DNA of 35,184 nt from an uncultured Ignavibacteriaceae bacterium (lineage in GTDB: Bacteria; Bacteroidota; Ignavibacteria; UBA10030): NCBI GenBank assembly GCA_964465905.1, contig CAYXMK010000001.1, positions 16,923 to 52,106 on the forward strand. Direction: 5' to 3'. The translations under genes and the position numbers were made by a program. This document shows positions 4,991-27,812 of the stretch, piece by piece; the first letter of the stretch is position 1; every line of letters starts with the position of its first letter. The notes beneath the pieces were generated by a model, which saw only the letters and a list, made by a program, of their open reading frames with translations, ran no database searches and was not told the origin of the DNA.

Positions 4991-5054
4991 GCCGGAAGCA
5001 TCCCTGACGAACGACGTGTGCTCTGTGCTCTCATTTTGACTGCTGAGGACATCC

Positions 5055-9833: not shown

Positions 9834-9981
9834 GAGTCGCCACAGGGAGCGACTCTTCCGCTGACAACTCTTGTCCCTCTCCGCGGCGCGTCATACCGGG
9901 TCGTGCAGGAGGGTGGGTTGTTTTTGCTCCTGCCCTCCGTGGGTGTCCGCGCATTCTCTCATCCCTGATCTGGAACCGACC

Positions 9982-12456: not shown

Positions 12457-13133
12457 AACAGATCCTCCTTGTGGAAGATGACAAAGCTATCCAACGGGGC
12501 CTGGTCGACACCCTGAGCCGGGAGCACTTTCAGGTCATCGCGGAATCAGACGGCTCCGCGGGATACGCCCGGGCGCGCAAGGCTCATTTCGACCTGATCA
12601 TCCTCGACGTCATGCTGCCGGGGATGGATGGATTTGAAATCTGCCGGAAGCTCCGCGGCGACGGCATCCAGACACCCGTCCTGATGCTGACCGGCAAGGG
12701 GGAAGAAATCGACAAAGTGCTGGGTCTGGAGCTGGGGGCGGACGACTATGTCACCAAGCCGTTCAGCATCAAGGAACTGATGGCACGCGTCAGAGCGCTT
12801 CTGCGACGGCAGGCGGAAATCCGGACCGCCATCGCCGAGACTGATTTCGGAAACGTGCACGTTGATTTCAAGAAACAGGAGACCCTCAAGGGAAGGAAGA
12901 AGGTCCGGATGAGCGCCAAGGAGTATGAATTGCTCAAGTACTTTGTCGAACACGAAGGAGAGGTCATCACGCGCCACCAACTGTTGGATGATGTGTGGGG
13001 ATACGACGTGACACCCACAACCCGTACGGTGGACAACTATGTGCTTTCGCTCCGCAAGAAGCTGGAGGCCCGGCCCTCCAGCCCTCAGCACTTCCTCACC
13101 ATCCCTACCGCCGGCTACAAGTTCGTGCGGTAG
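12453..13133 (+). CDS. OmpR/PhoB-family response regulator
   Basis: 226 aa. The receiver domain shows LLVEDD, DLIILDVMLPGMDG and LMLTGKG. The winged-helix output domain shows LSAKEYELLKYF, RTVDNYVLSLRKKL and GYKFV. Its ATG overlaps the kinase stop (ATGA at 12453-12456). Confidence 0.95.
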   Translation: MKQILLVEDDKAIQRGLVDTLSREHFQVIAESDGSAGYARARKAHFDLIILDVMLPGMDGFEICRKLRGDGIQTPVLMLTGKGEEIDKVLGLELGADDYVTKPFSIKELMARVRALLRRQAEIRTAIAETDFGNVHVDFKKQETLKGRKKVRMSAKEYELLKYFVEHEGEVITRHQLLDDVWGYDVTPTTRTVDNYVLSLRKKLEARPSSPQHFLTIPTAGYKFVR

Positions 13134-13297: not shown

Positions 13298-14140
13298 ATG
13301 AACCTGGACGGACTTCGCGTTCTCATCGCCGGTGGTACCAGCGGTATCGGGCTGGCCACAGCCCGCATGCTGTGTTCTCGCGGTGCAGCGGTCCTTGTGG
13401 CAGGCAGATCGCTCCCCCCTGCCCCCGCCATTTCCGGTCTTCCGCACGTTGCCTGCGACCTTCGCTCCCGGCGTTCTTGGGATAGACTCCTGGCGGAAAT
13501 GGTGCAACTCCATGCTGGCTGTGATGTCCTCATACACTCCGTCGGCGTACTTGTCCCGGGGCAACTGGATCATCTTCCATCATCCGCGGTCCAGACCGTG
13601 ATCGAGACGAACTTCTCCAGCGCCGTCCATGCTCTTCAGGCCGTCGTTCCCTGCATGCGTCGGCAGGGGTATGGTATGATCATCATCCTCGGATCGCTCG
13701 GTGGAATCGTTCCGATGCCGTATGGGGCTCTCTATGCCGCCACGAAGTTTGCCCTGCGCGGGCTTGTTCTCTCCGCCGCTCCGGAATTGAAGAAGGAGGG
13801 AATCGACATCTGTCTTGTATCCCCCGGACCGGTGTACACCCGCATGCTGGTCAGGGAAGCTGAGGACGAGCGTTGCACCCTCACCTTCGTCGAGCGACCG
13901 ATGCATGCCGAACAGGTTGCACAAACCATTGCACGTCTTCTGCTGCATCCCCGACTCGAGACCGTTCTTCCGGCCCACGCCGAATTTCCAAGCCGCCTGC
14001 TTGGTGCATTCCCGACGCTGCTCCGCTTCTGTTTTCCGTTGCTGAGGTTCCTCGGCACGCGACATTTGCGCGCATTCCAATCCACCGGGCTTCAGACCGG
14101 GCCGGTACCCTGTTCACTGTCCTCGCGGAGGATGCCGTGA
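13298..14140 (+). CDS. short-chain dehydrogenase/reductase (SDR) family oxidoreductase
   Basis: 280 aa with Rossmann motif VLIAGGTSGIGLATAR and catalytic YAATKFALRGL. It has a hydrophobic/basic C-terminal tail. Confidence 0.85.
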   Translation: MNLDGLRVLIAGGTSGIGLATARMLCSRGAAVLVAGRSLPPAPAISGLPHVACDLRSRRSWDRLLAEMVQLHAGCDVLIHSVGVLVPGQLDHLPSSAVQTVIETNFSSAVHALQAVVPCMRRQGYGMIIILGSLGGIVPMPYGALYAATKFALRGLVLSAAPELKKEGIDICLVSPGPVYTRMLVREAEDERCTLTFVERPMHAEQVAQTIARLLLHPRLETVLPAHAEFPSRLLGAFPTLLRFCFPLLRFLGTRHLRAFQSTGLQTGPVPCSLSSRRMP

Positions 14141-15573
14141 AGAGACCGAAACTCCTGATCATCGTCCTTTTTCAGAATCTCGGCGATACAGACCCGTACT
14201 ACGCGAAGAACCCTGCTCCGCCGCTGCCCGGAATCCTGCTGGCAGGAATGACTCCGCCCATGGTGGACGTAGAGGTGCTCCATGAGATGGTCCGCCCCAT
14301 CAACTACGACACCGACGCGGAGTTCATCGCCATCAGCTTCATGGATTACCTTGCACCTCACGCTTTTGAGGTTGCCCGGCGTTTTCGCCAGCGCGGCAAG
14401 ATCGTGGTTGGAGGAGGAAAGTTCGCCTCAACCTTTCCCGACGAGGTTCAGCCGCACTTTGACTCGATCCTCGTGGGCGAGGCGCAGTGCGTCTGGCCTC
14501 GCATGGTAGAAGATATGGTGGCCGGCAGACTGCAGAAGCGCTACACCGCCGATCCATCCGGCACACTCGAGGGCATTCCGTCCCCTCGCTATGATCTGGT
14601 CGAGCCGGTGTTCTTCACGCCCGTTGTGACGGAAGCGACCCGGGGCTGTCCTCATGCCTGCACGTTCTGCCAGCTCAACATTGAGCGCCTCCCCTTCCGG
14701 ATGCGCCCTGTGGAGGACGTCATCCGGGATCTCCAGAACACGCAAGGGCTCCCGTGGCACAAGCGCAAGATGGCGATGATCCTCGACAACAATCTCGGCG
14801 GCAACCTCCAGTACGCCAAGCAACTTCTGCGGGAAATCGCGCGGCTGAAGTTCTGGGGAATCGGTGCGCAGTACAGCATCGAGTGTGCCCGCGATCCCGA
14901 ATTCGTCGAACTGCTGTCTGCCGCGAACTGCAGGATGGCATTCGTGGGAATGGAGTCTCTGAACGACGGGAGTCTGAAGGGAGTCAAGAAGAAGCAGAAC
15001 AACGTTGAGGAGTACCGTGAGACGTTCGACCGGCTGCACCGTCGCGGCATTCTCACCTTTACGGGATTCATGTTCGCCCTCGACGAGGATACGCCTGAGT
15101 ACTATGAAACGCTCGCCGAGAAGCTGGATGAGGTCGGGATCTGTGTCATCCTCCCCTCCATCTCCGTACCGATCTACGGCACACCGTGGTATCGCGATGT
15201 CGTGGCCGAGGGGCGGCTCCTCGACACCGATCTGTCACACTATGAGGGGGATCATCTCGTGTTCCGGCACCGGCATCTGACAGGGGAGCAGATCTATACA
15301 TACTACCGCCGCGTGACACGGGCCTTCTACACGTGGCCGAATATCCTCCGGCGCTGGGTTCGCTTCCTCGGCAAGCAGAGGATCAACGAGTCCCTCCCGC
15401 AGTTCTTCCTGAAGATCCTCCTCACAACAGCCGTGTACTTCAGGCTCTCAATCTTCCAACGGCATCATGCCCAGAAGCGGATCTTCCCCCAACTCCCATC
15501 ACGGCAAACCGGGGGTGGTTTCGAGGAACTCGGGGAGGCAGCCGCCGCAGAGGGCCCCGCTTCCGGCTCATGA
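14137..15573 (+). CDS. B12-binding-domain radical SAM enzyme (class B, DUF4070-like C-terminus)
   Basis: The frame is open from inside the SDR gene. GTG 14137 overlaps the SDR stop (GTGA) and gives VKRPKLLIIVLFQN..., a typical start for a B12-binding Rossmann domain. The radical SAM cluster motif is TRGCPHACTFC (CxxxCxxC). The domain continues with FVGMESLND and TFTGFMFALDEDT. Confidence 0.85.
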   Translation: MKRPKLLIIVLFQNLGDTDPYYAKNPAPPLPGILLAGMTPPMVDVEVLHEMVRPINYDTDAEFIAISFMDYLAPHAFEVARRFRQRGKIVVGGGKFASTFPDEVQPHFDSILVGEAQCVWPRMVEDMVAGRLQKRYTADPSGTLEGIPSPRYDLVEPVFFTPVVTEATRGCPHACTFCQLNIERLPFRMRPVEDVIRDLQNTQGLPWHKRKMAMILDNNLGGNLQYAKQLLREIARLKFWGIGAQYSIECARDPEFVELLSAANCRMAFVGMESLNDGSLKGVKKKQNNVEEYRETFDRLHRRGILTFTGFMFALDEDTPEYYETLAEKLDEVGICVILPSISVPIYGTPWYRDVVAEGRLLDTDLSHYEGDHLVFRHRHLTGEQIYTYYRRVTRAFYTWPNILRRWVRFLGKQRINESLPQFFLKILLTTAVYFRLSIFQRHHAQKRIFPQLPSRQTGGGFEELGEAAAAEGPASGS

Positions 15574-15679
15574 TCCTTGACCGATCTTTGACAGTTCTAT
15601 GACATTTCATGAGCGCCCGGCGACGACCTTTCCTGTGTCCATCGATGACCATTACACTCATCACTATCAGGAGGTTGTC

Positions 15680-16285
15680 ATGAGACGCCGCATTGTCGTC
15701 CCGGGGATCTGTTCGTTCGTCCTTGCTCCCCCCCTTGCCGCTCAGCCCGCGGCCGGAACGTGGGAGCTTTCCCTCCCCGGAACTGCCGGATCCGTCTCCA
15801 CGAAGACCGAATACAGCGGCTCGTACCGCTCTGGGTCCAACAGTCCCGAAGCGCAGTCATACCTCATGCTCTACGTTCGACCGGGCTACTACATTTTCAA
15901 CGGTCTGTCTCTTGAGCCCGAGATCCCGTGGATGGCGATCGAGGACATCGAACCCGCACTGAGCGTCACCGGCAACATCAGCTACACTCTGCACTCACCC
16001 GAAAGTCGCGTTGCCCCCTTTGTGCTTGTCGGGTATGGCATGGGGAATACGATCCCCGATGCGCAGCGAGCGGTGGTGTGCACATCGGATGAATTCGATG
16101 TCTCCGTCCTCAACGCCGGCGGAGGTTTCAAGATCTTCGTCGGGGAAGCGACAGCCCTTCGGGTTGAGTACCGCTACCAGCGCTGCTCCAAAGAGGAATC
16201 GGAGACCTTCGGACCTTACACGATGACATTCCGGCACACGAATAACCAGCACAACGTGATCTTTGGGTTTTCATTCTTCCTGTAG
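15680..16285 (+). CDS. small outer-membrane beta-barrel protein (OmpA-barrel/OmpW-like)
   Basis: ATG 15680 is preceded by AGGAGG (15668-15673). The signal peptide ends LAAQ. The sequence has an alternating amphipathic strand pattern and an aromatic C-terminus, IFGFSFFL. Confidence 0.7.
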   Translation: MRRRIVVPGICSFVLAPPLAAQPAAGTWELSLPGTAGSVSTKTEYSGSYRSGSNSPEAQSYLMLYVRPGYYIFNGLSLEPEIPWMAIEDIEPALSVTGNISYTLHSPESRVAPFVLVGYGMGNTIPDAQRAVVCTSDEFDVSVLNAGGGFKIFVGEATALRVEYRYQRCSKEESETFGPYTMTFRHTNNQHNVIFGFSFFL

Positions 16286-16297
16286 GCCGGCGCCACG

Positions 16298-17074
16298 ATG
16301 AACGCATCCATCTTCAGGGGTTCTTCTATCGTGAACTTCATCCGGTATCTTCAAAGGCCCTTTCTTGCCACCACCGGATGTGCCCTGGTCTGGCTCACGG
16401 GCTGCGCCGCAACCGGACTCATGGTCGGCACCGGCATCGACGCCTCTGTGCCCGACTCCAGCAACATCTCCGGATGGGAGCTTGCAGCGATCCCACCGGG
16501 CACCGCCGGCGTGCTCGTGCATCGTAATGGGGTAACGGAGAACGTCGAGTTCGTCTGCATCCGGCAGTGTTCGGCGGAAGCCTATGCCCGGACGTATGCG
16601 GCGTTCCTCTCCGGACTTCCGAATGATGCAACTCTCCCCCGCATCGGAGAGCGTATTCAGCTGAAGACACGCGGGGGAGTATCATCGTCCTGCCGGTTCG
16701 CCGGCTTCGACTACGAACGGATCTGGGGTCTGATCGGCGATCCTCCGGTTCAGACGTACGCCCAATCCGAAAAGATCTCCGAGATCATCCTGGAGACGGG
16801 ACGCCGGATTTCAGCGGACTCGCTGCACCGGCTCCTGACCGACGGTGCGGTTCCATTCCTGTCGGGTGTGATCGTCCGCTCTTGCGGCTTCGATGAGGGT
16901 ATATTCAAGCCAGTGGGCCCGCCCGGCGAGAACGCGCCGTGCCGCCTCATACCCCTCGACGACATCCAGCACCTGAAAGTACCAACGGAGCGCAACAATA
17001 AGTGGTGGGGAGCTCTCATCGGCTTCGCAATCGATGTTGCATGGTTTGCCCTTTCCCGTACTTCACTCTGGTAA
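16298..17074 (+). CDS. hypothetical lipoprotein with C-terminal hydrophobic anchor
   Basis: 258 aa starting 12 nt after the OMP stop. It has lipobox WLTGC and a C-terminal WWGALIGFAIDVAWFAL segment. No family recognised. Confidence 0.6.
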   Translation: MNASIFRGSSIVNFIRYLQRPFLATTGCALVWLTGCAATGLMVGTGIDASVPDSSNISGWELAAIPPGTAGVLVHRNGVTENVEFVCIRQCSAEAYARTYAAFLSGLPNDATLPRIGERIQLKTRGGVSSSCRFAGFDYERIWGLIGDPPVQTYAQSEKISEIILETGRRISADSLHRLLTDGAVPFLSGVIVRSCGFDEGIFKPVGPPGENAPCRLIPLDDIQHLKVPTERNNKWWGALIGFAIDVAWFALSRTSLW

Positions 17075-17101
17075 GCACCCATACCACCAAAGGAGGATGC
17101 C

Positions 17102-18994
17102 ATGAAGACCTTCGTACGTTTTGTTCTCGTATGCGCTGCAGCGGCCACCGTGTGGTTCCCTGCGGCCGGACAGCAGGACACGCTCACGATCCTGCATCTG
17201 AATGACACACATTCGAATCTCGCTCCCATCGGGCCGCGGAATGCAGACCTTTCCGGAACGGTCGGAGGCATCGCCCGCGCAGCCACCATGATCGGCTTGA
17301 CAAAGATGACAGAGCCGAATGTCCTCGCTCTGCATGCCGGCGATTTGTTCATCGGCGATGTGTTCTACAACCTGTACTTCGGCATTCCGGAGCTCCGGAT
17401 CCTGCTGAGCGCCGGACTGGACGCCATGACCGTCGGAAACCATGAATTCGACCTCACTCCCTCCACACTCCTGATGGCGCTGGACACGGCTTTCGTGCAG
17501 GGCTCGTTTCCGCTTCTCTCCGCGAACGTCAATCTGGAGGCACCAGAGGTCCAGCCCCTGAAGAATTACATCCAGCCCTACATCGTCAAGGTCGTCGGAC
17601 CCGTCACTGTGGGCATTTTTGGCCTGACGACTCCGGCGACGAACATCCTCTCGCAGCCTTCTCCGGCGTTCATCGATTCCGACTTCGTGTCCATTGCCGC
17701 GGCGATGGTCGATACCCTCGCAGGAAAGGGGTGCAAGGTTATTCTCTGTCTTTCCCATCTTGGTTCATACTATGACATGCTCGTCGCACAGAATGTCCCG
17801 GGAATCCATGCCATCATCGGCGGGCACGATCACATCGTCTTTGAGGAACCGCTCGCTGTTATCACTCCGGCGGGGGATACAACCTGGATCGTTCAGGCAA
17901 ACGCATTCTATCTGAACATGGGCAGGCTTCGGTTCACCGTCACCGACAGTACTGTTGATCTTCTCGACTACACGCTGATCGACATGGATGAAGATATTCC
18001 AGAAGAACCGGAAGTGGCAACCGTAGTATCCGGACTGAAAAGCGAAATCGAGGCGACGTACCAGATTCCATTCTTTTCTCAGCAGGTGAGCTACGCCACC
18101 GAGGATTTTTCGGAAGTTGCTGACTCTCTGTCAAGTGAGGGTTACCGGGATACAGAGATTGGCAATCTGGTCACCGACGCATTCCGGTGGGTCGCCAAGA
18201 CCGACATTGCCATCGAGGTCGGCGGCTCAACGGCGCAGGTGCTCTGCCGGGGGCCTGTTGTGCCCGATGATTTGTTCAGGGTTGTCGGGTACGGTTTCAA
18301 CACGGATAATACCTTGGGATATCGGCTGGCGACGTTCGACATGAAAGGGGAGGCACTGCTGATGGGATTGGAATTCGGGCTGTCAGGCATCGAGCTCGAC
18401 GACGAATTCTTCATTCAGGCATCCGGACTCACGTACAGCTATGCCGCCGCACGTGACGCGTATCAGCGCCTGGCGGACGTCCAGATCAATGGATCGCCGC
18501 TGGATCCGGCGCAGATGTACTCCGTCACAGCCAATGAGTTCGTCCCGTTGTTCCTCACATACATCGAAATCCCGTTCGAGAACCTGAAGATCAAATCCGA
18601 TACAACGGAATTCCAGGCCCTCCTCTGGTACGTTTCGCAGTCTGACACCTTGAGACCCCCCCAGGGGGGCCGCATCCGCAGTATCGTGGATACCGCCGTT
18701 TCCGCGGTTCGCATCGCCACGCTCGTGCCAGAGCAGTTTGAACTGCATCAGAACTTCCCGAATCCGTTCAATCCATCAACATCGCTCACCTTTGATCTCC
18801 CTGTCGCCACAACCATCCGGCTTTCTGTATCCAATATTCTCGGACAGGAGATTGCCTTACTGGCGAGCGGACTGCACCAAGCTGGTTCCTACACGGTGTC
18901 CTGGAACGCCTCGGGGCACAGCAGTGGTCTCTATCTGGTCCGGCTGGAGGGGGGAGGATCCTCTGCCGTCAAGAAGATACTCCTGATCAGGTAA
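17102..18994 (+). CDS. 5'-nucleotidase/metallophosphoesterase (UshA-like) with T9SS C-terminal sorting domain
   Basis: AAGGAGGA lies upstream and a signal peptide is present. Metallophosphatase motifs are ILHLNDTHS, GDLFIGD, GNHEFD and GGHDH. A 5'-nucleotidase C-terminal domain follows. The last ~87 aa (18731-18991), FPNPFNPSTSLTF...GLYLVRLE...KKILLIR, form a T9SS-type CTD. Confidence 0.9.
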   Translation: MKTFVRFVLVCAAAATVWFPAAGQQDTLTILHLNDTHSNLAPIGPRNADLSGTVGGIARAATMIGLTKMTEPNVLALHAGDLFIGDVFYNLYFGIPELRILLSAGLDAMTVGNHEFDLTPSTLLMALDTAFVQGSFPLLSANVNLEAPEVQPLKNYIQPYIVKVVGPVTVGIFGLTTPATNILSQPSPAFIDSDFVSIAAAMVDTLAGKGCKVILCLSHLGSYYDMLVAQNVPGIHAIIGGHDHIVFEEPLAVITPAGDTTWIVQANAFYLNMGRLRFTVTDSTVDLLDYTLIDMDEDIPEEPEVATVVSGLKSEIEATYQIPFFSQQVSYATEDFSEVADSLSSEGYRDTEIGNLVTDAFRWVAKTDIAIEVGGSTAQVLCRGPVVPDDLFRVVGYGFNTDNTLGYRLATFDMKGEALLMGLEFGLSGIELDDEFFIQASGLTYSYAAARDAYQRLADVQINGSPLDPAQMYSVTANEFVPLFLTYIEIPFENLKIKSDTTEFQALLWYVSQSDTLRPPQGGRIRSIVDTAVSAVRIATLVPEQFELHQNFPNPFNPSTSLTFDLPVATTIRLSVSNILGQEIALLASGLHQAGSYTVSWNASGHSSGLYLVRLEGGGSSAVKKILLIR

Positions 18995-19015
18995 CTGGAC
19001 TTGAAAAGCTTGAGA

Positions 19016-19051
19016 GCACCCGCAGGCCGCTCCTGCGGGTGCTTCGTTGTG
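19016..19051 (+). terminator. intrinsic terminator after the 5'-nucleotidase gene
   Basis: GCACCCGCAGG (19016-19026) pairs with CCTGCGGGTGC (19032-19042) to give a perfect 11-bp stem with a 5-nt loop. A T-rich tail TTCGTTGTG follows. Confidence 0.7.
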
Positions 19052-19199: not shown

Positions 19200-19763
19200 A
19201 TGAAGACGCTCGTTGCTTTCTCCGTTGTCGTGCTGCTCACAATCGTGCTCCCGCTGCCGGCAGCCCTCAGCCAGCCGCTGCCCGGTGGCCAGGTCTCATT
19301 TGCCGAGCGCAACCTCGGCGGACCGCGGCTGGGGGCCACGTATGTCGTGGGGGAGAATACCCTCACACGCGAGCTCCGGGAGAATAATCTCGGAACGCTC
19401 ATCAGCCAGTTCGGATGGCATTTCGAATACCAGGTGGTGCCGGATGGGGGCGGACCGTCGTTCGTCATCGAGGCGGTTCCCATGGTTGGCGGCGTCGAGT
19501 ACGGGAAGCTCATTCCCAGTGCCACGCTCGCCATGGGTGTGCGTTTTCCAAGCGGCTGGGAATTCGGCATGGGTCCCAATGCCATTGTCACCAGGTCGGC
19601 GTCCCGCCTCGGGGCCAAGACAGCCCTCGTCCTTGCCTTCGGCAAGAGTCTGAACTACGGCGGTGTCAGTATTCCGCTGAATCTCGTTCTGGCCACGAAT
19701 CCGGATGGGAACCGCGTTTCGTTCATCTTCGGCTATGCGATCTACTCTCCGCCGAAGAAGTAG
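19200..19763 (+). CDS. secreted/outer-membrane hypothetical protein
   Basis: ATG 19200 is preceded by GAGGAGGA. The signal peptide is MKTLVAFSVVVLLTIVLPLPAALSQ. The body is Gly/aromatic-rich and beta-strand-like. The gene lies 18 nt upstream of the next gene. Confidence 0.6.
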   Translation: MKTLVAFSVVVLLTIVLPLPAALSQPLPGGQVSFAERNLGGPRLGATYVVGENTLTRELRENNLGTLISQFGWHFEYQVVPDGGGPSFVIEAVPMVGGVEYGKLIPSATLAMGVRFPSGWEFGMGPNAIVTRSASRLGAKTALVLAFGKSLNYGGVSIPLNLVLATNPDGNRVSFIFGYAIYSPPKK

Positions 19764-19781
19764 GAGAGAGGAGACATAGCC

Positions 19782-20720
19782 ATGTCCGTGCTTGCTGTTA
19801 CCGGTTCCAGCGGCTACCTGGGTCAGGCGCTCGTCCACCGCCTGGCCTGCGAACGGAAATTCCGAAAGATTGTCGGGGTTGATGTGCGGCCTCCAGCCCC
19901 CCATCAACCCTCGGTTTTCTTCCAGATGGACGTCCGGAGTGACCGGCTCTCTGAGGTATTGGGGAATGAAGGCGTCACGCACGTCGCCCATCTGGCCTAT
20001 GTCGTGAATCCGACGAGAAATCCGAATGTAGAATACGACATTGATATCGGCGGCACGCGCAACGTCTTGAACGCATGTCGGCAGACGGGCGTACGGTGCC
20101 TGACGGTGGCAAGCAGTATTGCGGCCTATGGATGGCATGCGGATAATCCGCTGCCGATTCCGGAATCGACCCCGCTGAGGGGCAATCTGGAGTTTCCGTA
20201 TGCCAGGAACAAGGTAGTGGTTGAACGGGACGTCGCGGAGTATTCGGAGAAGAATCGCCATTGCCGGGTCTGTGTGCTGAGAATCTGCAACGTTCTTGGA
20301 CCACACGTGCACAATGCGATTTCGTTTGCCCTGACGTCGCCTCTCTTCCTCGCGGCCCGCGGATATGATCCCTTTCTCGCCTTCACGCATGAAGACGACA
20401 TGGCGGAGGTGTTCCGCAGGGTCCTCGTGGAAGAAACGGCGGGAGTGTTCAACGTCGCCGGCGCAGGGATGCTGCGACTCAGCGAGGTTCTTCGCATCAC
20501 CGGACAACGTGTGCTCCACCTTCCGCATGCCGTTCTCAGGGGAACACTGGAGATTCTCTTCCGGGTCCACTGGCTGCCGTTCGGCAGTGGACAGATCGGG
20601 TTCATCGAGCACTCGTGCGTCCCGGACATCTCGAAGCTGACATCAGAGCTACGCTACGTTCCCCGGTACACCTCGGAACAGACTCTGGGTGCGTTCATCC
20701 GCTCGCGGTCTACGTCATGA
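19782..20720 (+). CDS. NAD-dependent epimerase/dehydratase (extended SDR) family protein
   Basis: 312 aa with N-terminal VLAVTGSSGYLGQALVHRL (GxxGxxG), then VASSIAAYG and a YARNK-type catalytic YxxxK. Confidence 0.8.
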   Translation: MSVLAVTGSSGYLGQALVHRLACERKFRKIVGVDVRPPAPHQPSVFFQMDVRSDRLSEVLGNEGVTHVAHLAYVVNPTRNPNVEYDIDIGGTRNVLNACRQTGVRCLTVASSIAAYGWHADNPLPIPESTPLRGNLEFPYARNKVVVERDVAEYSEKNRHCRVCVLRICNVLGPHVHNAISFALTSPLFLAARGYDPFLAFTHEDDMAEVFRRVLVEETAGVFNVAGAGMLRLSEVLRITGQRVLHLPHAVLRGTLEILFRVHWLPFGSGQIGFIEHSCVPDISKLTSELRYVPRYTSEQTLGAFIRSRSTS

Positions 20721-21652
20721 ACTCCATGATCCCATACTTCATCGTCAATCCCGCGGCAGGAGGTGGGGCATGCTCCCGACGATGGCAACTCTTCGAGCGA
20801 GACCTCGCCCGGCGGGGGGTTATGTATGACACGGTGTTCACCAGCAGTTGCGGATCAGCTACAGAACTTGCACGCGAGGCGTGTGAAAGCGGCTATGACC
20901 GCATCATCGCCTTCGGGGGAGACGGAACGCTGCATGAAGTCCTGAACGGACTGCTGGCGGCGCGGGGGAATGGAGCGGACAGAACGCTGGGTCACGTCCC
21001 CTGCGGCACCAGCAATGACTACCACAAAGAGTTCTGGGGCCTGGAGGGCTCCTTCGTGGAGCGGCTCCAGCGGAATGAAACGAGAGTCGTCGACGCTTGC
21101 AGGCTACGCTGCCGGGGATTTGACGGAACTCTCCGCGACCGGTTCTTCCTGGCGAATTCCAGCATCGGCGTCGTGGCACAGTCGCTCTGCTACTTCAATG
21201 CTCCAGGCGCATTCAACAGAGCCCTCAAGCGAATCCATCCCGACCTTGCCGTGCTCAACGTCGGACTTCAGTCGATTCTCCACAGCGGTCCTCTGGACTG
21301 CGCAATCCTCGTCGATGATCGCCAGCTATCGGCCCGCTCTCCGGCGAATCTTTCCATCATCAAAGCCCGGTACTTCGGAGGCGGCATGTCGTACAACATC
21401 CCGGCAGCCATTGATGACGGATTTCTCCATCTCATCGGAATTGACGGACTCAGCCGATGGGGAATGGCCGCCATGATTCCCCATTTCTATCGCGGTGACG
21501 TTCTCCGCATGCCCGGCGTGTGGCATGTCATCGGCACAAGGATCAGCATCGGCGGCGATCCCGGGCAACCTGTGGAGGCCGACGGGGAAATCGTCGGATC
21601 CCTGCCGGCTGAGTACACCATCCTGCCTCGGGCCGTGCGGATACTCCTGTGA
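20717..21652 (+). CDS. diacylglycerol-kinase-family lipid kinase (YegS/BmrU-like)
   Basis: ATG 20717 overlaps the upstream stop (ATGA). The N-terminus is YFIVNPAAGGG and the DAGK catalytic signature is IIAFGGDGTLHEVLNGL. The C-terminal part contains PVEADGEIVG. Confidence 0.8.
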   Translation: MNSMIPYFIVNPAAGGGACSRRWQLFERDLARRGVMYDTVFTSSCGSATELAREACESGYDRIIAFGGDGTLHEVLNGLLAARGNGADRTLGHVPCGTSNDYHKEFWGLEGSFVERLQRNETRVVDACRLRCRGFDGTLRDRFFLANSSIGVVAQSLCYFNAPGAFNRALKRIHPDLAVLNVGLQSILHSGPLDCAILVDDRQLSARSPANLSIIKARYFGGGMSYNIPAAIDDGFLHLIGIDGLSRWGMAAMIPHFYRGDVLRMPGVWHVIGTRISIGGDPGQPVEADGEIVGSLPAEYTILPRAVRILL

Positions 21653-21664
21653 GAACCTGACGCC

Positions 21665-22723
21665 ATGTCCACGAGCCAACACTCGGTGCTGTCGGAAGAA
21701 CGCGAGATCATTGAGCTCCTCACCGCCGGCTTCGAGCGTCACCCGCAGCAGCTGAACGACCTTTTCACTTCCGACGCCGAAGTTCTCGACATCGGCGAAT
21801 CCCGCTGTCTCGTGAGCACCACGGACACGTTGAGCGAAGAGATTCGTCTCGGCATCTTGCGCGATCCCTGGAAGATTGGCTGGACAGCGGTCAACGTAAA
21901 TTTGAGCGATCTTGCAGCAGTCGGAGCAGACGCGCTTGGCCTGCTGCTCTCCTGGGGCGTGCCGCCGCACGCTTCGCGGGAACTGCTGGCTGCCGTGGCT
22001 CGTGGTGTTCTGGATGCTCTCCGGTACCACCACTCTTATCTCCTCGGAGGGGATCTGAACGAAGCAGAGTCGCTGCAGCTCTGCGGCACAGCTCTCGGTC
22101 TTATAGAGAAAGGACGGCGGCTGCAGCGCGCCGGCATGTGCCCCGGCGATGCGCTCTTCCTCTCCGGACCCATCGGCAGCGGCAACGCTCTCGGCTGCGC
22201 CAGGATCCTGAACCACGGCGACGCGGACCGGATCGAGTCGGAGTACCTTCCCACCGCACGTCTGCGCGTCGGCCGAATGATCGCACCGTTCGCATCTTCC
22301 TGCATCGACACCAGCGACGGCGTGCTGGCGGGTCTCGACCTGCTGGCGCATCTGAACAGGTGCGGTGTTGTCTTCCGGAGTGTTCCCGATCTCTATGACG
22401 GCAATGCCCGACGGCTCTCGGAACAACTCCGGATTCCCCTCTGGCTCTTCGCAGCCGCGGAACATGGGGAATTCGAACTCCTTTTTTCTGTACCGGAGGC
22501 CCGTGTCACCGAGCTGAGGAGACATTGTGAGCTCTACTCTCTGAAGATCCTGGAACTGGGACACGCAATCGCCGAGACGGAAATTGTCCTGGAGGACGTG
22601 AACGGCTCGCACCACACGCTCGATGCTGCCGAACTTCATTCCATTTCATCCTGCGGACGCTCCAATCCCTCCCTCTACGTTGAGCGACTGATAGAGTATG
22701 CCCGGTCGCTCAGGAGATCATGA
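21665..22723 (+). CDS. ThiL-like / AIR-synthase-related (PurM superfamily) ATP-dependent enzyme
   Basis: 352 aa, colinear with E. coli ThiL motifs. AVNVNLSDLAAVGA matches AVNLSDLAAMGA, and LLGGDL matches the ThiL GGD motif. IDTSDGVLAGL matches IDLSDGLISDL, and EHGEFELLFSVPE matches GGEDYELCFTVPE. Confidence 0.75.
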   Translation: MSTSQHSVLSEEREIIELLTAGFERHPQQLNDLFTSDAEVLDIGESRCLVSTTDTLSEEIRLGILRDPWKIGWTAVNVNLSDLAAVGADALGLLLSWGVPPHASRELLAAVARGVLDALRYHHSYLLGGDLNEAESLQLCGTALGLIEKGRRLQRAGMCPGDALFLSGPIGSGNALGCARILNHGDADRIESEYLPTARLRVGRMIAPFASSCIDTSDGVLAGLDLLAHLNRCGVVFRSVPDLYDGNARRLSEQLRIPLWLFAAAEHGEFELLFSVPEARVTELRRHCELYSLKILELGHAIAETEIVLEDVNGSHHTLDAAELHSISSCGRSNPSLYVERLIEYARSLRRS

Positions 22724-22724
22724 C

Positions 22725-23723
22725 ATGACAGACCGCAACGACAGCGCGGTGCCGGCTCTCCGGCGTTTGGCACGCAATATCTGGGTGACGTTCCGTCCCC
22801 ATTTCTTCCCGATCTCGGGGGCTGCGGGGTTCACCGGCATTGCGCTTGCCTATGCCTCACCCCCTCTGTGGATTACGATCACAATCGGCATGATTTGCTT
22901 CTTCTCGTACGGTCTCATCCAGGCATTGTGCGATACGTTCGATCTCGAGACGGATCGCATCAACGCACCGTTCCGGCCCCTCGTCAGCGGCGCGCTCTCC
23001 GTCCGGACGCTCTGGATTGTTCTCGGCTCCCTCCTGACAGGTGTCGCAATCCTGTTCGTCCTGATCAACCCTCTTCTGCTGATTCTTCAGTTCATCGCAC
23101 TCATCTTCAGCTTCTCATACAACAGGATGAAGCGCATTCCTCATGCCGGACCCCTCTGGAATGGCGTCATCGTCGCGACGCTCCCGCTTATCGGAGCAAC
23201 AGCGGTTTCAGGCACACGGTCATTGCTGGAACTCCCTCTGCCGGTTTACCTGTGCGCAGTCCTGTTCTGCATTGTGTACGCCGGATTCGTGCTGACGGGG
23301 TACTTCAAAGATGTCACCGGCGACCGCGCAACGGGGTACCGGACATCCCCTGTTGTGTATGGACCCCGAAAGACCCGATGGGAAGTGCCGGCCTATGTGA
23401 TCGTGGGAACATTGGGGATGGCGTCACTGCCGATGGTTTCCCCCGACAGTTGGCATACCGCGCCCGCTGGTGGCAGAGAGGTCTTCAGTCTGCTGGGAGT
23501 GCTGGCTGTCGGACTTCTTCTCACCGGCAATGTTCTGCTCATTCGGGATTTCTCCGAAAAAGGTGCATATCCGTCCCTTCTGTGGTACACCCGGGGAATG
23601 CTGCTATATCTCCTCGCTCCCGCTGCTCTTGCATCACCAGCCACTGCCATCGGCGTAACTCTGGTTCTTGTTGGAATCCTTGAGTACTTTCTCCGGCACA
23701 CACGTGGCACAGGACAGGCATGA
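22725..23723 (+). CDS. UbiA-family prenyltransferase (integral membrane)
   Basis: ATG 22725 lies 1 nt after the upstream stop. There are about 8-9 TM helices. The first Asp-rich motif is CDTFDLETDRINAPFRPLVSG (NDxxDxxxD...RP..SG type). The second motif region is YFKDVTGDRATGYRT. Confidence 0.85.
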   Translation: MTDRNDSAVPALRRLARNIWVTFRPHFFPISGAAGFTGIALAYASPPLWITITIGMICFFSYGLIQALCDTFDLETDRINAPFRPLVSGALSVRTLWIVLGSLLTGVAILFVLINPLLLILQFIALIFSFSYNRMKRIPHAGPLWNGVIVATLPLIGATAVSGTRSLLELPLPVYLCAVLFCIVYAGFVLTGYFKDVTGDRATGYRTSPVVYGPRKTRWEVPAYVIVGTLGMASLPMVSPDSWHTAPAGGREVFSLLGVLAVGLLLTGNVLLIRDFSEKGAYPSLLWYTRGMLLYLLAPAALASPATAIGVTLVLVGILEYFLRHTRGTGQA

Positions 23724-25891
23724 CGACCCTTTCAGCCCGGCGCGGTCTCCTTCTCCTGCTCATCGCGCTCGGTGGGCTCGCTTCGTCTCTCCCCGCTCAA
23801 AACCTCCGTGTCGCTACCCTCAACTTCTGGTCGGCGGTTGACTACTGCGGGACCCTGAGTGTCGGATCCTTCGAGTCGCCGGAACAGCATGCCCTCCGGC
23901 TCCGTGCACTTACCCGGTTGCTCCAGGATCTCCAGCCTGACGTCGTTGCCTTGCAGGAATCCAACGATGTCTTCCGCGTCGCCGCTGAACTTGAAGAAAC
24001 GCTTGGTTACGACGCCCTCGTCCAGCGCGTGAATGCCGGCATCAAGATCGGACCTTGCGGCATTCCCTGCAATCTGAATGAAGGGTTGATCCTCCTGGCG
24101 CGGAAGGAGCTGGAGCTGCAACCCGTGGCTGTTTGGGATCTCTCCCGAAGATTCGGCGCCGTCGGCAACACAGTCTCGTTCCACTTCGACGATCAGAACT
24201 ATGCCCTCGTTGGCAGAGTGCGGCTGGATACAATAGACGTTTACATCGTCAACGTTCATCTCTCATCCGGCGTGCCGGCAGCCGCGGAAACCCACGAACA
24301 GCTGGACAGTATCCTTGCTGTCCATGGAATTTCCCTTGAGAAGGCAAGGAGCCTGCATGCCGATCTCAATGCCGGCTCGCTGCTGCGACATGAAGAAGCA
24401 ACGCGCCTCCTCGCGCACATCGAAAGGGAGCTCACCGATGGCGCGGTCGTTCTGATGGGCGACTTCAACGCTGCACCCGATGCCCCGGAGATTCAGGCCG
24501 TGGGCACTGCAGGTTTCACTGACGCTTTCACGTGTGCCGGGACCGGCGCCGGCAACACGTGGGATCCCTCCCGGAATGTTCTCATCCGTTATTCGACAGA
24601 TGCGGTGACCGCTGACGGCGCACCGCTGGACCCGTTCGGTCTCCTCGCAGCATGGTACGACCGTCAGCCAAGGAGAATCGATTATGTCTTCCTGGGCCCT
24701 CACGGCACGCCAGGGGACGTCTTGTCTGCGTCACTGATCGGCGATTTCTCTACAGACAGCACCCCTGTTTCCGACCACTTCGGAATCACAGCAGAGATCG
24801 ACCTCTCGAGGATTTCCCGCAGGTTGAATGCTCTCGACCGATACACTCTGCACCCTCCACAGCGGAGCCTGGAACTCCTGCCGATTCTGATGTACGATAC
24901 CGATGTCGGATTCGGGTACGGCGGGAAGCTGTTCCTCCTCAACTACCTTGATTGGTCCGAGTCGTTTGATTTCACCATATTCAACAGTACGAAAGGAGAG
25001 CGATGGTACCGGCTTGTCTTCTCCCTCCCCGACTTTGAGGTCCGCCAGGGAAGAATTTACCCCTTTGCGTTCGACTTCATTATCGACTACGATCGGTATC
25101 TCAAGAACAACTTCTTTGGCATTGGGGGAAATTCCCACTCCGAAGACCGGGAGACCTACACGAAGGAACCGTTGGATGTGTTTGCGCTGGTGAGCAGGGC
25201 TTTTTCTCCACGCTTTGTCGGACAGATCGGCGTGAAGTACCGAACTGTGAACAATTTCGGCTACAGGTCGGGAGGTCTCTTTACGTCGCTTCCCCCGCAG
25301 AACCTCGGCCGGAGCAGCGGTCTCTCACTGCTGGCCTCTGTGCGGTACGATTCCCGCGACAGCTATGTCAACCCTTCGCGGGGATTCGTTCTGCAGCTGG
25401 ATCTCGAGGCCGGACCCCGCATGACGCTCTCCAGCGGCAACCAATCCCGACCGGTGACAGACTACAGTCTCTTTGGCGGACTCATTTCCTGCCAGAGCTA
25501 CCACACCCTGTTCTATCCAAAGACGGTGTTCGCTGCACGTGTTCAGGCGCGAATGGTCAACGGCTCCCGCCTGCCGGTGCACAGTTATGTTTCCCTCGGA
25601 GGAGGAGGCACCCTGCGTGGCTATCCTCAGGATCGCTTTATCGACAAGGCCGGCGTCCTGGCGAATGTTGAACTGCGGTTTCCGTTGTTCTGGCGCATCG
25701 GAGGGGTAGCCCTGTGGGATATCGGGAAGCTCACGGGATCGGCTTCGGCACCCGGTTCACTTGCTTCCGGTTGGAAATCAAACGTTGGCGGCGGTCTGCG
25801 TCTCTCCATGGACACCTTCGTCGTTCGAGCCGATATCGGGTTCAGCCGGGAATCGACCGGTTTCTACTTCAACTTCGGCCACGCGTTCTGA
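23720..25891 (+). CDS. fusion protein: endonuclease/exonuclease/phosphatase (EEP) domain plus Omp85-family (surface antigen D15) beta-barrel
   Basis: ATG 23720 overlaps the UbiA stop (ATGA), and a signal peptide ends LPAQ. EEP motifs appear in order: ATLNFW, VALQES, LMGDFNAAPD, RIDYVFL, VSDHFGITAEI. From about aa 390 the sequence is Omp85 barrel-like (YDTDVGFGYGGKLFLLN... GGGGTLRGYPQDRF ... GGGLRLS ... FYFNFGHAF). Confidence 0.8.
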   Translation: MTTLSARRGLLLLLIALGGLASSLPAQNLRVATLNFWSAVDYCGTLSVGSFESPEQHALRLRALTRLLQDLQPDVVALQESNDVFRVAAELEETLGYDALVQRVNAGIKIGPCGIPCNLNEGLILLARKELELQPVAVWDLSRRFGAVGNTVSFHFDDQNYALVGRVRLDTIDVYIVNVHLSSGVPAAAETHEQLDSILAVHGISLEKARSLHADLNAGSLLRHEEATRLLAHIERELTDGAVVLMGDFNAAPDAPEIQAVGTAGFTDAFTCAGTGAGNTWDPSRNVLIRYSTDAVTADGAPLDPFGLLAAWYDRQPRRIDYVFLGPHGTPGDVLSASLIGDFSTDSTPVSDHFGITAEIDLSRISRRLNALDRYTLHPPQRSLELLPILMYDTDVGFGYGGKLFLLNYLDWSESFDFTIFNSTKGERWYRLVFSLPDFEVRQGRIYPFAFDFIIDYDRYLKNNFFGIGGNSHSEDRETYTKEPLDVFALVSRAFSPRFVGQIGVKYRTVNNFGYRSGGLFTSLPPQNLGRSSGLSLLASVRYDSRDSYVNPSRGFVLQLDLEAGPRMTLSSGNQSRPVTDYSLFGGLISCQSYHTLFYPKTVFAARVQARMVNGSRLPVHSYVSLGGGGTLRGYPQDRFIDKAGVLANVELRFPLFWRIGGVALWDIGKLTGSASAPGSLASGWKSNVGGGLRLSMDTFVVRADIGFSRESTGFYFNFGHAF

Positions 25892-25986: not shown

Positions 25987-27390
25987 TTGGGCACGCTTCG
26001 TCGCGTTTTCCTTCCCCTGTCCTCAGCCGCCGTCACGCTTTTCCTCCACCCCGACCTCTCTGCTCAGGTCTCCCTGCGCGAGAAGATCGGACAGATGGTG
26101 ATGGTAACCGTCACGGGGGATTCTCTGGAGAAATCTTCCCCGTCGCTGGACACGTTGAAGAGCGATCTGGACCAGGGCCTGGTCGGCGGACTGATCCTCT
26201 TCAACTGGAGCGGGAATCTGAAGAATCCGGATCAGATCGCCCACTTCACGCAGGAATTGCAGAAGAGGGCCCGGACTCCGCTCTTCCTCGCCATTGATCA
26301 GGAGGGAGGGAGAGTCGCCCGCCTGAACGCGTCGAACGGCTTTCAGGCAACCGCCTCTGCGTACACGCTCGGGACGATCCTCAATCTTGAAAGCGCCACC
26401 CGACAGACGGCAGGCACGATGGCCCAGTGGCTCTGGCAGATGGGATTGAACATGAACCTTGCCCCCGTTGTGGATGTCAATGTGAATCCGGCCAGCCCGG
26501 CCATCGGCGCTGTGGAACGCAGCTTCTCTACCGACGCCGACACCGTCGCGCTGCACGCCTCCTGGTTCATCGATGAATTCCATAAGCGGGGTATCATCAC
26601 CACGCTGAAGCACTTTCCCGGTCACGGCAGTGCAACCGGCGATTCGCATCTCGGCTTCACCGATGTAACTACAACATGGACATCCATCGAGCTGGTGCCG
26701 TACCGCCGTTTGATGGCAGCTCATCTCGTCGAAGCCGTCATGACTGCCCACGTCTTCAACGCAACCATTGATACTTTGTACCCCGCCACACTCTCGACGG
26801 CAACGATCACCGGCATTCTCAGAAACGAGCTTGGCTACCAGGGCGTGGTGGTGAGCGACGAAATGGGAATGAAAGCAATTTCCTCGCAGTTCGGATTTGA
26901 CGAAGCTATCGGATTGGCACTCAATGCCGGAGTGGATCTCCTGCTGTACAACAAAAACCTGGACAGTACCGGCTCATCGTTGGCCCGGCATGTGGTTGAC
27001 TACGTCGAGCAGAAGGTCCTTGAGGGTGAGATCGCCCCCCTACGCATCGAGGAATCCTATGACCGGATTATGGCCCTCAAGAGCCGGTACCTCGTATCCG
27101 CACCGGTCCGCATCACGGCGGCGATGCCTGCATCATGGGGACTCTCGAACTATCCCAATCCCTTCAACAGCTCCACACAGCTCGTTGTCAGCGTGAGGGC
27201 TCGCGGTTCGGCTGAACTGCAGATCTTCGATCTCCTCGGCCGGGCGATCGCAACGCTTCTGCATCAGGACCTTGAGGCGGGGGAACACCGCGTGGTCTGG
27301 GATGCCCGTGACATGCCCAGCGGCGTCTACCTGGCCCGACTGACGGTTGCTCAGCACGTGCTGACCGCCAGAATTCTTCTCCTTCGGTAA
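25987..27390 (+). CDS. glycoside hydrolase family 3 beta-N-acetylhexosaminidase (NagZ-like) with T9SS C-terminal sorting domain
   Basis: There is no ATG after the upstream stop. TTG 25987 (or TTG 25957) yields a signal peptide ...AAVTLFLHPDLSAQ. GH3 motifs are KIGQMVMV, FLAIDQEGGRVARL, NLAPVVDVN, KHFPGHGSATGDSH and VVVSDEMGM. The last ~84 aa (27136-27387), NYPNPFNSSTQLVV...GVYLARL...RILLLR, form a T9SS-type CTD. The start codon is uncertain. Confidence 0.85.
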   Translation: MGTLRRVFLPLSSAAVTLFLHPDLSAQVSLREKIGQMVMVTVTGDSLEKSSPSLDTLKSDLDQGLVGGLILFNWSGNLKNPDQIAHFTQELQKRARTPLFLAIDQEGGRVARLNASNGFQATASAYTLGTILNLESATRQTAGTMAQWLWQMGLNMNLAPVVDVNVNPASPAIGAVERSFSTDADTVALHASWFIDEFHKRGIITTLKHFPGHGSATGDSHLGFTDVTTTWTSIELVPYRRLMAAHLVEAVMTAHVFNATIDTLYPATLSTATITGILRNELGYQGVVVSDEMGMKAISSQFGFDEAIGLALNAGVDLLLYNKNLDSTGSSLARHVVDYVEQKVLEGEIAPLRIEESYDRIMALKSRYLVSAPVRITAAMPASWGLSNYPNPFNSSTQLVVSVRARGSAELQIFDLLGRAIATLLHQDLEAGEHRVVWDARDMPSGVYLARLTVAQHVLTARILLLR

Positions 27391-27727: not shown

Positions 27728-27769
27728 ACGGTGGGAATGCTGATCGGAGCGTTCCCACTGTTTGTTTTG
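27728..27769 (+). terminator. attenuator hairpin B:C with U-rich tail (terminator-like 1)
   Basis: A 13-bp stem (27728-27740 with 27749-27761, including 2 G-U pairs) has an 8-nt loop and runs into TTTGTTTTG (27761-27769). Confidence 0.5.
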
Positions 27770-27777
27770 CACACGCG

Positions 27778-27812
27778 AAATCGTGGGATCCTCCGCCCAC
27801 GATTTTTCTTTG
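27778..27812 (+). terminator. attenuator hairpin D:E with U-run (terminator-like 2)
   Basis: AAATCGTGGG (27778-27787) pairs with CCCACGATTT (27796-27805) to give a 10-bp stem with an 8-nt loop. It runs into TTTTTCTTTG (27803-27812), 44 nt before the trpB2 ATG. Confidence 0.6.

Follow-up and report, generated by a model that had tools for sequence, protein, structure and literature searches.

What do a lipid kinase, a relative of the thiamine-monophosphate kinase ThiL and a membrane transferase of the UbiA superfamily do side by side in one bacterial operon? The question is raised by a stretch of DNA from an uncultured Ignavibacteriaceae bacterium (contig CAYXMK010000001.1, positions 16,923 to 52,106), analysed over its full length of 35,184 nucleotides (nt) and hereafter called the window, in which the three genes lie next to one another within a plus-strand run of six. 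A first-pass annotation made from the sequence alone had read this run as one functional unit matching no pathway it recognised, and had suggested that an alcohol is converted to a monophosphate, then to a diphosphate, and is finally transferred by the UbiA enzyme. We annotated the open reading frames (ORFs) of the window with Pfam and NCBIfam profiles and followed the three genes through other genomes. Very probably, the locus represents a conserved lipid-biosynthesis cluster, rather than a part of thiamine or quinone metabolism. Our literature search found no account of a module of kinase, ThiL-like enzyme and UbiA transferase, in agreement with the first-pass annotation; the closest literature concerns other UbiA neighbourhoods, which are unrelated to the present module.

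The three genes lie in a tightly packed operon

The run comprises the following six ORFs.

19200 to 19763, plus strand: operon gene 1, a 187-residue protein with a signal peptide and a beta-barrel-like C-terminus (FGYAIY), described from its sequence
19782 to 20720, plus strand: extended short-chain dehydrogenase/reductase (SDR) of the Epimerase family, with GxxGxxG and YxxxK present (Pfam Epimerase, 97.7 bits)
20717 to 21652, plus strand: DAGK/YegS-type lipid kinase, core gene 1 (Pfam DAGK_cat and YegS_C)
21665 to 22723, plus strand: ThiL-like ATP-dependent enzyme of the PurM superfamily, core gene 2 (Pfam AIRS; TIGR01379)
22725 to 23723, plus strand: UbiA-superfamily membrane transferase, DGGGPS/ChlG-like, core gene 3 (Pfam UbiA, 111 bits; top NCBIfam models DGGGPS-type, 66–74 bits)
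23720 to 25891, plus strand: EEP phosphodiesterase domain fused to an Omp85 beta-barrel (Pfam Exo_endo_phos and Omp85)

From the ORF coordinates, the successive junctions measure 18 nt, −4 nt, 12 nt, 1 nt and −4 nt, exactly as first reported. Both overlaps are ATGA, at 20717–20720 (read directly in the sequence) and at 23720–23723, and a Shine-Dalgarno-like site, GAGGAGG, lies 5′ of the ATG at 19200. A set of six genes in one direction, overlapping by 4 nt at two junctions and spaced by 1 nt at another, is typical operon architecture rather than chance. The profiles bore out every family name proposed in the first-pass annotation, whose title had the five families right and left the gene at 19200–19763 unnamed. 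The product of that gene has no Pfam or NCBIfam match, and a homologue (63% identity) was present in only one of the loci compared, L009. The strong terminator that had been placed upstream of the run is real as well.

About 19015 to 19044, plus strand: terminator-like hairpin between two operons (fold energy and sequence)

Its G+C-rich stem of 12–13 base pairs has an energy of −28.2 kcal/mol (z −3.2 against shuffled sequences) and is followed by UUCGUUGUG.

The triad is conserved across about 10 phylum-level lineages

Homologues of the ThiL-like protein were numerous in a database search, at 33–52% identity, and the genes for UbiA, the DAGK-type kinase and the ThiL-like protein (hereafter the triad) stood side by side in each genomic context that was opened individually. 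A locus scan, in which an alignment of the ThiL-like clade was run against one genome per GTDB species, yielded 411 loci. The best 80 of the 411 were fetched, and 82 non-duplicate loci were used for neighbour counts, their ORFs being assigned to families by blastp, with proteins of the window and of three relatives as references; a subset of 34 loci has at least 8 kb on both flanks. Recurrent neighbours were surveyed as families found within 9 kb in at least four of the 82 loci.

The kinase gene was present in 76 of the 82 loci and in all 34 with full flanks, adjacent to the ThiL-like gene, and the UbiA gene in 73 (33 of the 34). Other frequent partners were an alpha-oxoamine synthase (61 of 82; 28 of 34), a radical S-adenosylmethionine (SAM) enzyme of the B12 type (46 of 82; 25 of 34) and a classical SDR (29 of 82; 14 of 34). 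The median gap on the ORF calls is 2 nt between the UbiA and kinase genes and −13 nt between the kinase and ThiL-like (AIRS) genes. The triad is contiguous throughout, and gene order differs among lineages.

According to the record titles of the 80 fetched loci, 31 are of Ignavibacteria type and 26 belong to Bacteroidota, including Saprospiraceae and the cultured Flavobacteriaceae Hyunsoonleella aquatilis and Seonamhaeicola aphaedonensis. Gemmatimonadota account for five, Aminicenantes for four, Eisenbacteria and 'Eubacteriales' for three each, and Calditrichia, Zixibacteria, Stahlbacteria, Verrucomicrobiota and Bdellovibrionaceae for one each; three loci are unclassified. In 80 loci representing about 10 phylum-level lineages, the triad is hardly ever split. 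A Bdellovibrionaceae locus (L083, 9980–16662) carries two ThiL-like paralogues together with an alpha-oxoamine synthase and a kinase, and UbiA was not detected there.

The complete order of the window's five named genes was found again, co-linear, in L010 and L009. The contig of a third locus, L005, starts within the ThiL-like gene and retains the order ThiL-like, UbiA, EEP-Omp85; the possibility that the five genes are nowhere else co-localised can be dismissed. A heuristic match further suggests that the window's closest ThiL-like relatives and EEP-Omp85 proteins occur together on contigs of 21186, 18412 and 5550 bp. The idea of one functional unit is supported both by the spacing of the genes and by their linkage across lineages. 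Its extent needs revision: the genes do belong together, and the unit is larger than first drawn, including an upstream segment at 13298–15573 and a two-component system.

Catalytic motifs of the three core enzymes are intact

DAGK-fold kinases phosphorylate lipid alcohols. The GGDGT motif of the triad's kinase and its C-terminal DGE motif are conserved in 74 relatives; the nearest solved structures are 4wer and DgkB (2qv7), and sphingosine kinase is a distant match.

ThiL uses ATP to phosphorylate a phosphate monoester to a diphosphate. On the ThiL equivalog model TIGR01379, which has a curated cut-off of 184.15 bits, the window's ThiL-like protein scores 154.3 bits and five relatives from five cluster types score 154.8–172.9 bits, placing all six members tested below the cut-off. 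The AlphaFold2 (AF2) model of the protein (pLDDT, the predicted local distance difference test, 92.5) was compared with solved structures by Foldseek; the top 12 matches are ThiL structures (E 5e-28, 21–28% identity), and SelD, HypE and PurM come after them. The protein is like ThiL (PDB 5cc8 and 3c9t) in its fold, its DxSDG motif and its metal-binding aspartates, with D37, D54, D82, D130, D215, S217 and D218 invariant in the clade, and on this likeness it probably phosphorylates a phosphate monoester. It is unlike ThiL in that the clade always scores under the cut-off, has a pair of additional C-terminal helices in the AF2 model and carries invariant motifs of its own. The genomic setting differs as well, the gene being locked to those of a lipid kinase and a UbiA enzyme and having no thiamine context: the families recurring around the 82 loci include none for thiamine, and there is no Rfam match anywhere in the window and hence no thiamine diphosphate (TPP) riboswitch. 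A profile of the clade finds 2160 representatives (clusters at 50% identity) at E ≤ 1e-30. A grouping with genuine ThiL, which the first-pass annotation had named as a threat to its proposal, is not what the profile scores indicate.

UbiA enzymes bind a diphosphate substrate. The window's UbiA protein appears, by model and structure matches, to be nearest to archaeal DGGGPS, and not to be a quinone enzyme. The DGGGPS-type models PRK12884, PRK12882 and PRK12883 are the top NCBIfam models in all six clade members, at 50–75 bits against cut-offs of 269–353; the nearest solved structure is DGGGPS (6m31); and two Asp-rich motifs, at about residues 70–78 and 195–206, are both conserved in 72 relatives. 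On quinone-type models, the window's protein gave 42 bits for ubiA_proteo and 37 bits for MqnP, short of cut-offs of 275–420, and the UbiA proteins of five relatives had no MenA, UbiA or MqnP match at E ≤ 1e-12. Placement among the MenA/UbiA quinone enzymes, another outcome that would have told against the first proposal, is therefore not observed, the matches being to DGGGPS/ChlG-type models.

The resemblance to archaeal DGGGPS has its limits. Best model family, nearest solved structure and both Asp-rich motifs are shared, but the scores stay far below the DGGGPS cut-offs, no GGGPS or glycerol-1-phosphate (G1P) dehydrogenase is among the families recurring within 9 kb in the 82 loci, and the partners are instead kinases and a synthase resembling serine palmitoyltransferase (Spt). 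DGGGPS itself makes its ether bond beside the phosphate-bearing carbon. The families recurring in at least four of the 82 loci also include no polyprenyl synthase, quinone or isoprenoid-synthase family and no head-group transferase.

A likeness to mycobacterial decaprenyl-phosphoryl-ribose chemistry, also raised at first, does not hold: the DPPR-synthase model NF008978 gives 20.4 bits against a cut-off of 207. The mycobacterial system of DPPR synthase and the DprE1/DprE2 epimerase likewise places a UbiA-family gene beside an SDR, but no DprE1-type or PAP2 partner occurs here and the Epimerase-type SDR is confined to the window's sublineage. A DPR/DPA-like pathway was rejected on this negligible model score. 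Two other UbiA neighbourhoods were considered and set aside: the ebo/thallusin cluster, of which the UbiA enzyme EboC is a member, is composed of other genes, and the match to the EboC model reaches 32 bits (cut-off 250); in the YfiM/UbiA neighbourhoods described in the lipocone paper, the partners are not those found here.

Partner genes point to amino-lipid chemistry

As judged from their families, the partner genes form a membrane-lipid toolkit and point to sphingoid or amino-lipid chemistry rather than to salvage of a free prenol. The best model for the relatives' alpha-oxoamine synthases is the CFB serine palmitoyltransferase (340–434 bits, cut-off 640); BioF (363–411 bits, cut-off 426) and Kbl are roughly as near, and the synthases score 204–213 bits on the CqsA-type model (cut-off 428). 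Some clusters contain a FadD-like long-chain acyl ligase. The gene order in Flavobacteriaceae and Saprospiraceae is ThiL-like, synthase, DUF3419 (BtaA family), GNAT acyltransferase, MMPL/HAE3 exporter, kinase and UbiA. An Aminicenantes locus has histidine kinase, response regulator, kinase, UbiA, ThiL-like, SDR, a 141-residue ORF with no family match, SDR, radical SAM and Omp85 barrel. The variant cluster with DUF3419, GNAT and MMPL/HAE3 between synthase and kinase was seen in Hyunsoonleella aquatilis (L071, 9980–18440), in L084 and in Saprospiraceae loci, and suggests an aminocarboxypropyl-type head group and lipid export.

Bacterial sphingolipid synthesis, with Spt, 3-ketodihydrosphingosine (KDS) reductase/CerR, bCerS and ceramide kinase, resembles this gene set in that the relatives have an Spt-like synthase, a KdsR-like SDR, a FadD-like ligase, a GNAT protein and a DAGK-fold kinase. 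It differs in that the synthases stay under the Spt cut-off at about the same distance from BioF and Kbl, and in that the window is without a synthase. We know of no described sphingolipid pathway that includes a UbiA enzyme, a ThiL-like enzyme or a B12 radical SAM enzyme.

A putative three-step lipid pathway and its alternatives

Family membership, operon layout, intact catalytic motifs and conserved linkage are observations, and we give an even chance to the following reading of them: the locus would be the local form of a membrane-lipid cluster, widespread in the Fibrobacteres–Chlorobi–Bacteroidetes (FCB) group and neighbouring bacteria, whose pathway has three kinase and transferase steps, running from the kinase through the ThiL-like enzyme to UbiA. 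The substrates, the order of the steps and the product are what we infer from the enzyme families. The DAGK/YegS-type kinase would convert a lipid alcohol to its monophosphate, and the ThiL-like enzyme, by ThiL chemistry, would use ATP to turn this monophosphate into the lipid diphosphate. The DGGGPS-like UbiA protein would bind the diphosphate on its two Asp-rich Mg2+ motifs and transfer the lipid group to an oxygen (or nitrogen) nucleophile, with release of pyrophosphate and formation of an ether-type bond. An Spt-like synthase and a ketoreductase SDR would make a sphingoid-type long-chain amino alcohol, the most likely source of the alcohol or of the acceptor, and the B12-type radical SAM enzyme would modify a chain.

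A single net reaction is the simplest account of three genes that are never separated, and the idea of sequential kinases is strengthened because the triad almost never comes apart in the 80 loci. The course from alcohol to monophosphate, diphosphate and UbiA proposed in the first-pass annotation appears to be the most economical reading, and it is the free prenol as the alcohol that the amino-lipid partners disfavour. A bolder version is possible, and we put it forward tentatively: the ThiL paralogue may be the first bacterial lipid-monophosphate kinase, and the lipid diphosphate that it makes may be a modified one or one that is not an isoprenoid (sphingoid or alkyl). In Ignavibacteria, Bacteroidota, Gemmatimonadota, Aminicenantes and their relatives, the DGGGPS-like enzyme may use this diphosphate to build amino-lipids with ether linkages that would form a new class; a PhoBR-like switch and servicing by an outer-membrane phosphoesterase may also apply.

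Several points weigh against the three-step lipid pathway. The searched literature contains no experimental work on any member of the module and names no substrate or product for one. The ThiL-like scores lie near the ThiL cut-off, and JGI and NCBI label some clade members thiamine-monophosphate kinase. The diphosphates normally ionised by UbiA enzymes are allylic; for one with a saturated alkyl or sphingoid chain, different chemistry (SN2-like or neighbouring-group) would be required. Furthermore, the Pfam annotation shows no alpha-oxoamine synthase in the window, and about a quarter of the loci have none nearby, so the amino-alcohol link is not universal. Database matches to proteins from the two ends of the window lay on short contigs and brought no synthase gene to light beyond it.

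The main rival, which we regard as unlikely, has the same enzymes acting in another order. Following the logic of DGGGPS, the kinase would make a sphingoid (or other lipid) 1-phosphate, UbiA would prenylate the neighbouring hydroxyl or amine with geranylgeranyl or farnesyl diphosphate, and the ThiL-like enzyme would act last, giving a pyrophosphate head group or an activated intermediate. This order agrees with DGGGPS being what the UbiA clade matches best, both among models and among solved structures, with the resemblance of a sphingoid 1-phosphate to geranylgeranylglyceryl phosphate (GGGP), the phosphate lying beside the nucleophile, with DAGK_cat being the fold of sphingosine and ceramide kinases, and with the Spt-like synthase and KdsR-like SDR found in most clusters; however, it leaves the inseparability of the ThiL-like gene unexplained, and the surveyed neighbourhoods hold neither a conserved downstream head-group transferase nor a linked polyprenyl synthase. 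Salvage of a free prenol, the version originally proposed, is less likely again. Phytol, geranylgeraniol or another isoprenoid alcohol would be phosphorylated twice and passed to UbiA, as plant VTE5 and VTE6 feed ChlG/HPT. The logic of the triad would be identical to that of the three-step lipid pathway, and the UbiA clade lies near ChlG and DGGGPS, which use phytyl or geranylgeranyl diphosphate. That polyprenyl-phosphate kinase genes are largely unidentified outside plants (PMC9782597) also counts in favour of salvage, but the partners (alpha-oxoamine synthase, ketoreductase, acyl ligase and radical SAM) make up a toolkit for de novo amino-lipid synthesis, and no isoprenoid gene is linked in the neighbourhoods surveyed. 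By analogy, the proposed pathway would share with the VTE5/VTE6 phytol route the passage from lipid alcohol to monophosphate, diphosphate and UbiA, and the window's UbiA protein lies near the ChlG/DGGGPS branch; the kinases are unrelated, being of the DAGK_cat/YegS_C and PurM/ThiL folds here, and de novo amino-lipid genes take the place of chlorophyll turnover. The parts of the module are known families, and the logic proposed for them has a non-homologous precedent in plants.

Three further explanations depart from a doubly phosphorylated lipid. It is decidedly improbable that the two kinases make a soluble, PRPP-like (phosphoribosyl diphosphate) X-diphosphate, that UbiA couples X to a polyprenyl phosphate or lipid in the manner of DPPR synthase, and that the SDRs remodel the head group. 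NAD kinases, which act on soluble substrates, share the DAGK_cat fold, thiamine monophosphate is itself soluble, and SDRs are frequent partners; set against this are the DPPR-synthase score, the lack of a conserved phosphatase or DprE1-like partner, and the FadD-like ligase, GNAT and MMPL genes, which point to the lipid itself being built. That an ordinary thiL and an ordinary quinone or haem prenyltransferase are mere neighbours without a joint pathway is very improbable. ThiL is the best-scoring family and fold, and the database names of some members agree with it, but the scores are consistently below the cut-off, the linkage is near-invariant across about 10 lineages, no thiamine gene or TPP riboswitch lies near, UbiA matches no quinone model, and the clade has its own C-terminal helical extension and invariant motifs. 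Equally remote is a signalling role, in which a CqsA/LqsA-like synthase would produce an autoinducer of the alpha-hydroxyketone type, modified by the other enzymes and sensed by the adjacent two-component pair. Such a pair is conserved beside many clusters, and the synthases do match the CqsA-type model; yet CqsA is their weakest match, far under its cut-off, the triad also occurs without a synthase, and the MMPL exporter, GNAT, BtaA-like enzyme and outer-membrane proteins suit a bulk lipid better.

The conserved neighbourhood extends into the upstream operon

The genes preceding the hairpin are as follows; those from 13298 to 18994 form a second operon with close spacing.

9871 to 12456, plus strand: sensor histidine kinase with an N-terminal domain of seven transmembrane helices (Pfam HisKA_7TM, HisKA and HATPase_c)
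12453 to 13133, plus strand: response regulator of the OmpR/PhoB family (Pfam Response_reg and Trans_reg_C), in 4-nt overlap with the kinase gene
13298 to 14140, plus strand: classical SDR (adh_short/KR), 3-ketosphinganine reductase-like (Pfam adh_short, 133 bits)
14137 to 15573, plus strand: B12-binding-type radical SAM enzyme (Pfam Radical_SAM), whose GTG start overlaps the SDR stop (GTGA)
15599 to 16285, plus strand: small outer-membrane beta-barrel protein (Pfam OMP_b-brl)
16298 to 17074, plus strand: putative lipoprotein with an N-terminal LTGC, from its sequence (no Pfam match)
17102 to 18994, plus strand: 5′-nucleotidase/metallophosphoesterase with a type IX secretion system (T9SS) sorting tail, the last gene of the upstream operon (Pfam Metallophos, 5_nucleotid_C and Por_Secre_tail)

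By homology to genes at other cluster loci, the classical SDR and the radical SAM gene (13298–15573, 5 kb upstream), together with the two-component system, appear to belong to the same conserved neighbourhood as the triad. The window's SDR shares 40% identity with the one at the head of the L007 cluster, and the two score 104 and 114 bits, respectively, on the KdsR model (cut-off 400). The radical SAM enzyme, which has weak matches to HpnJ, BchE, PhpK and lipid B12-radical SAM models, is 60–68% identical to the triad-adjacent radical SAM genes of L002, L004 and L007; in the same comparisons the ThiL-like, UbiA and kinase proteins are 22–41% identical. Over the best 120 database clusters listed, which bear generic names only, its family is uniformly 67–75% identical. 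Across phyla (60–75%), the radical SAM enzyme is far better conserved than any of the three core enzymes, and none of its relatives is characterised. In an Aminicenantes locus (L070, 14929–17431) the gene after that for the radical SAM enzyme encodes an Omp85 barrel lacking an N-terminal domain, and a COQ7-like di-iron hydroxylase lies further downstream; in four other loci the radical SAM gene is followed by that of a small 4Fe-4S ferredoxin.

The histidine kinase is probably a regulator of the neighbourhood. Its catalytic core is nearest to the PnpS/PhoR models, under their cut-offs, and its relatives (28–40% identity) lie beside the cluster in at least 15 loci. The top NCBIfam model for the response regulator is PhoB (210.6 bits, cut-off 296), and orthologue-level relatives at 50–65% identity flank the cluster or an EEP-Omp85 gene in 23 loci. 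The two-component pair directly precedes EEP-Omp85 in L089 (5608–10004) and L023 (16085–19029). Together with the secreted 5′-nucleotidase, the two-component system may indicate phosphate-responsive control. Relatives of the 5′-nucleotidase (35–60% identity) were found in six cluster loci, and an outer-membrane protein gene like that at 15599–16285 precedes the cluster in L071. The putative lipoprotein gene at 16298–17074 is separated from its neighbours by 12 and 27 nt.

The Epimerase-type SDR and EEP-Omp85 fusion are lineage-specific

The first-pass annotation had counted the Epimerase-type SDR and the EEP-Omp85 protein as parts of the pathway. The locus counts contradict this: both are lineage-specific additions and not core members. 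The Epimerase-type SDR, which reaches no NCBIfam cut-off, adjoins the triad only in the window-type loci L001, L009 and L010, and a match to it anywhere in the locus was found in five loci. EEP-Omp85 is an accessory linked in the window's sublineage and in a few other loci: it adjoins the triad in L005, L009, L010 and L023, and in all three independently sampled contexts of EEP-Omp85 genes (L089, P0136 and L090) the triad was absent within 10 kb. EEP-Omp85 was ruled out as a core member on these three contexts.

Pfam places the Exo_endo_phos domain of the fusion at residues 58–353 and the Omp85 domain at residues 472–723, and reports no POTRA domain. The family has 198 matches at 40–53% identity, and the catalytic residues N35, E80, D248, N250, D352 and H353 of the EEP domain are invariant. 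A sequence comparison with PDB chains gave none for the domain at E ≤ 1; its AF2 model (pLDDT 89) has a generic EEP phosphodiesterase fold and is closest in Foldseek to TDP2, uncharacterised bacterial EEP proteins and nocturnin. A sphingomyelinase, as expected from the Spt context, was also considered for the EEP domain and rejected, since none was in the Foldseek top 50. The type Vd proteins PlpD and FplA are built alike, with a hydrolase domain for lipids or phosphoesters at the N-terminus and an Omp85 barrel at the C-terminus, but with a patatin passenger in place of the EEP domain; the absence of a Pfam POTRA domain is a further difference of the present protein. The enzyme domain of PlpD (patatin-Omp85) is reported to be periplasmic (PMC11116518), and action of the EEP domain at the cell surface, as first supposed, is therefore an assumption that should not be made.

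A stand-alone EEP protein of 280 residues and a 234-residue protein without a family match are encoded on the strand opposite to the triad, a few kb upstream of it, in L004 (1710–3275), L006, L008 and other Ignavibacteriaceae loci; mobile-looking small genes (HTH_17, DUF2779) stand between these two genes and the triad.

Other features of the window

Secreted hydrolases with T9SS tails lie on both sides of the operon, namely the 5′-nucleotidase/metallophosphoesterase at 17102–18994 and a GH3 NagZ-like beta-N-acetylhexosaminidase at about 25990–27390. Tandem strong terminator-like hairpins at 27728–27806 (14 and 11 pairs, each followed by a T-run) sit between the upstream GH3 gene and a TrpB-like PALP gene. 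A gene for a membrane H+-translocating pyrophosphatase occupies 5055–7613, upstream of the two-component system, and a 727-residue minus-strand ORF at 2816–5104, without a Pfam match, overlaps several plus-strand ORFs of 225–401 residues.

Implications

If the three-step lipid pathway is correct, a paralogue of thiamine-monophosphate kinase that annotation pipelines now name ThiL would have a new function, and it would be a candidate for the long-missing class of lipid-phosphate kinases. In the making of a membrane lipid, the pathway would bring together head chemistry of the sphingolipid type, a UbiA transferase of the archaeal type and a B12 radical SAM enzyme that is highly conserved. The question is directly testable in two cultured strains that carry the module, Hyunsoonleella aquatilis SJ7 and Seonamhaeicola aphaedonensis CECT 8487. 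Such a pathway would be present in at least 411 species-level genomes of abundant bacteria of soil, sediment and water. It would also be relevant to the formation of ether-type lipids by bacteria and to the question of where the DGGGPS-like enzymes of the FCB group came from.

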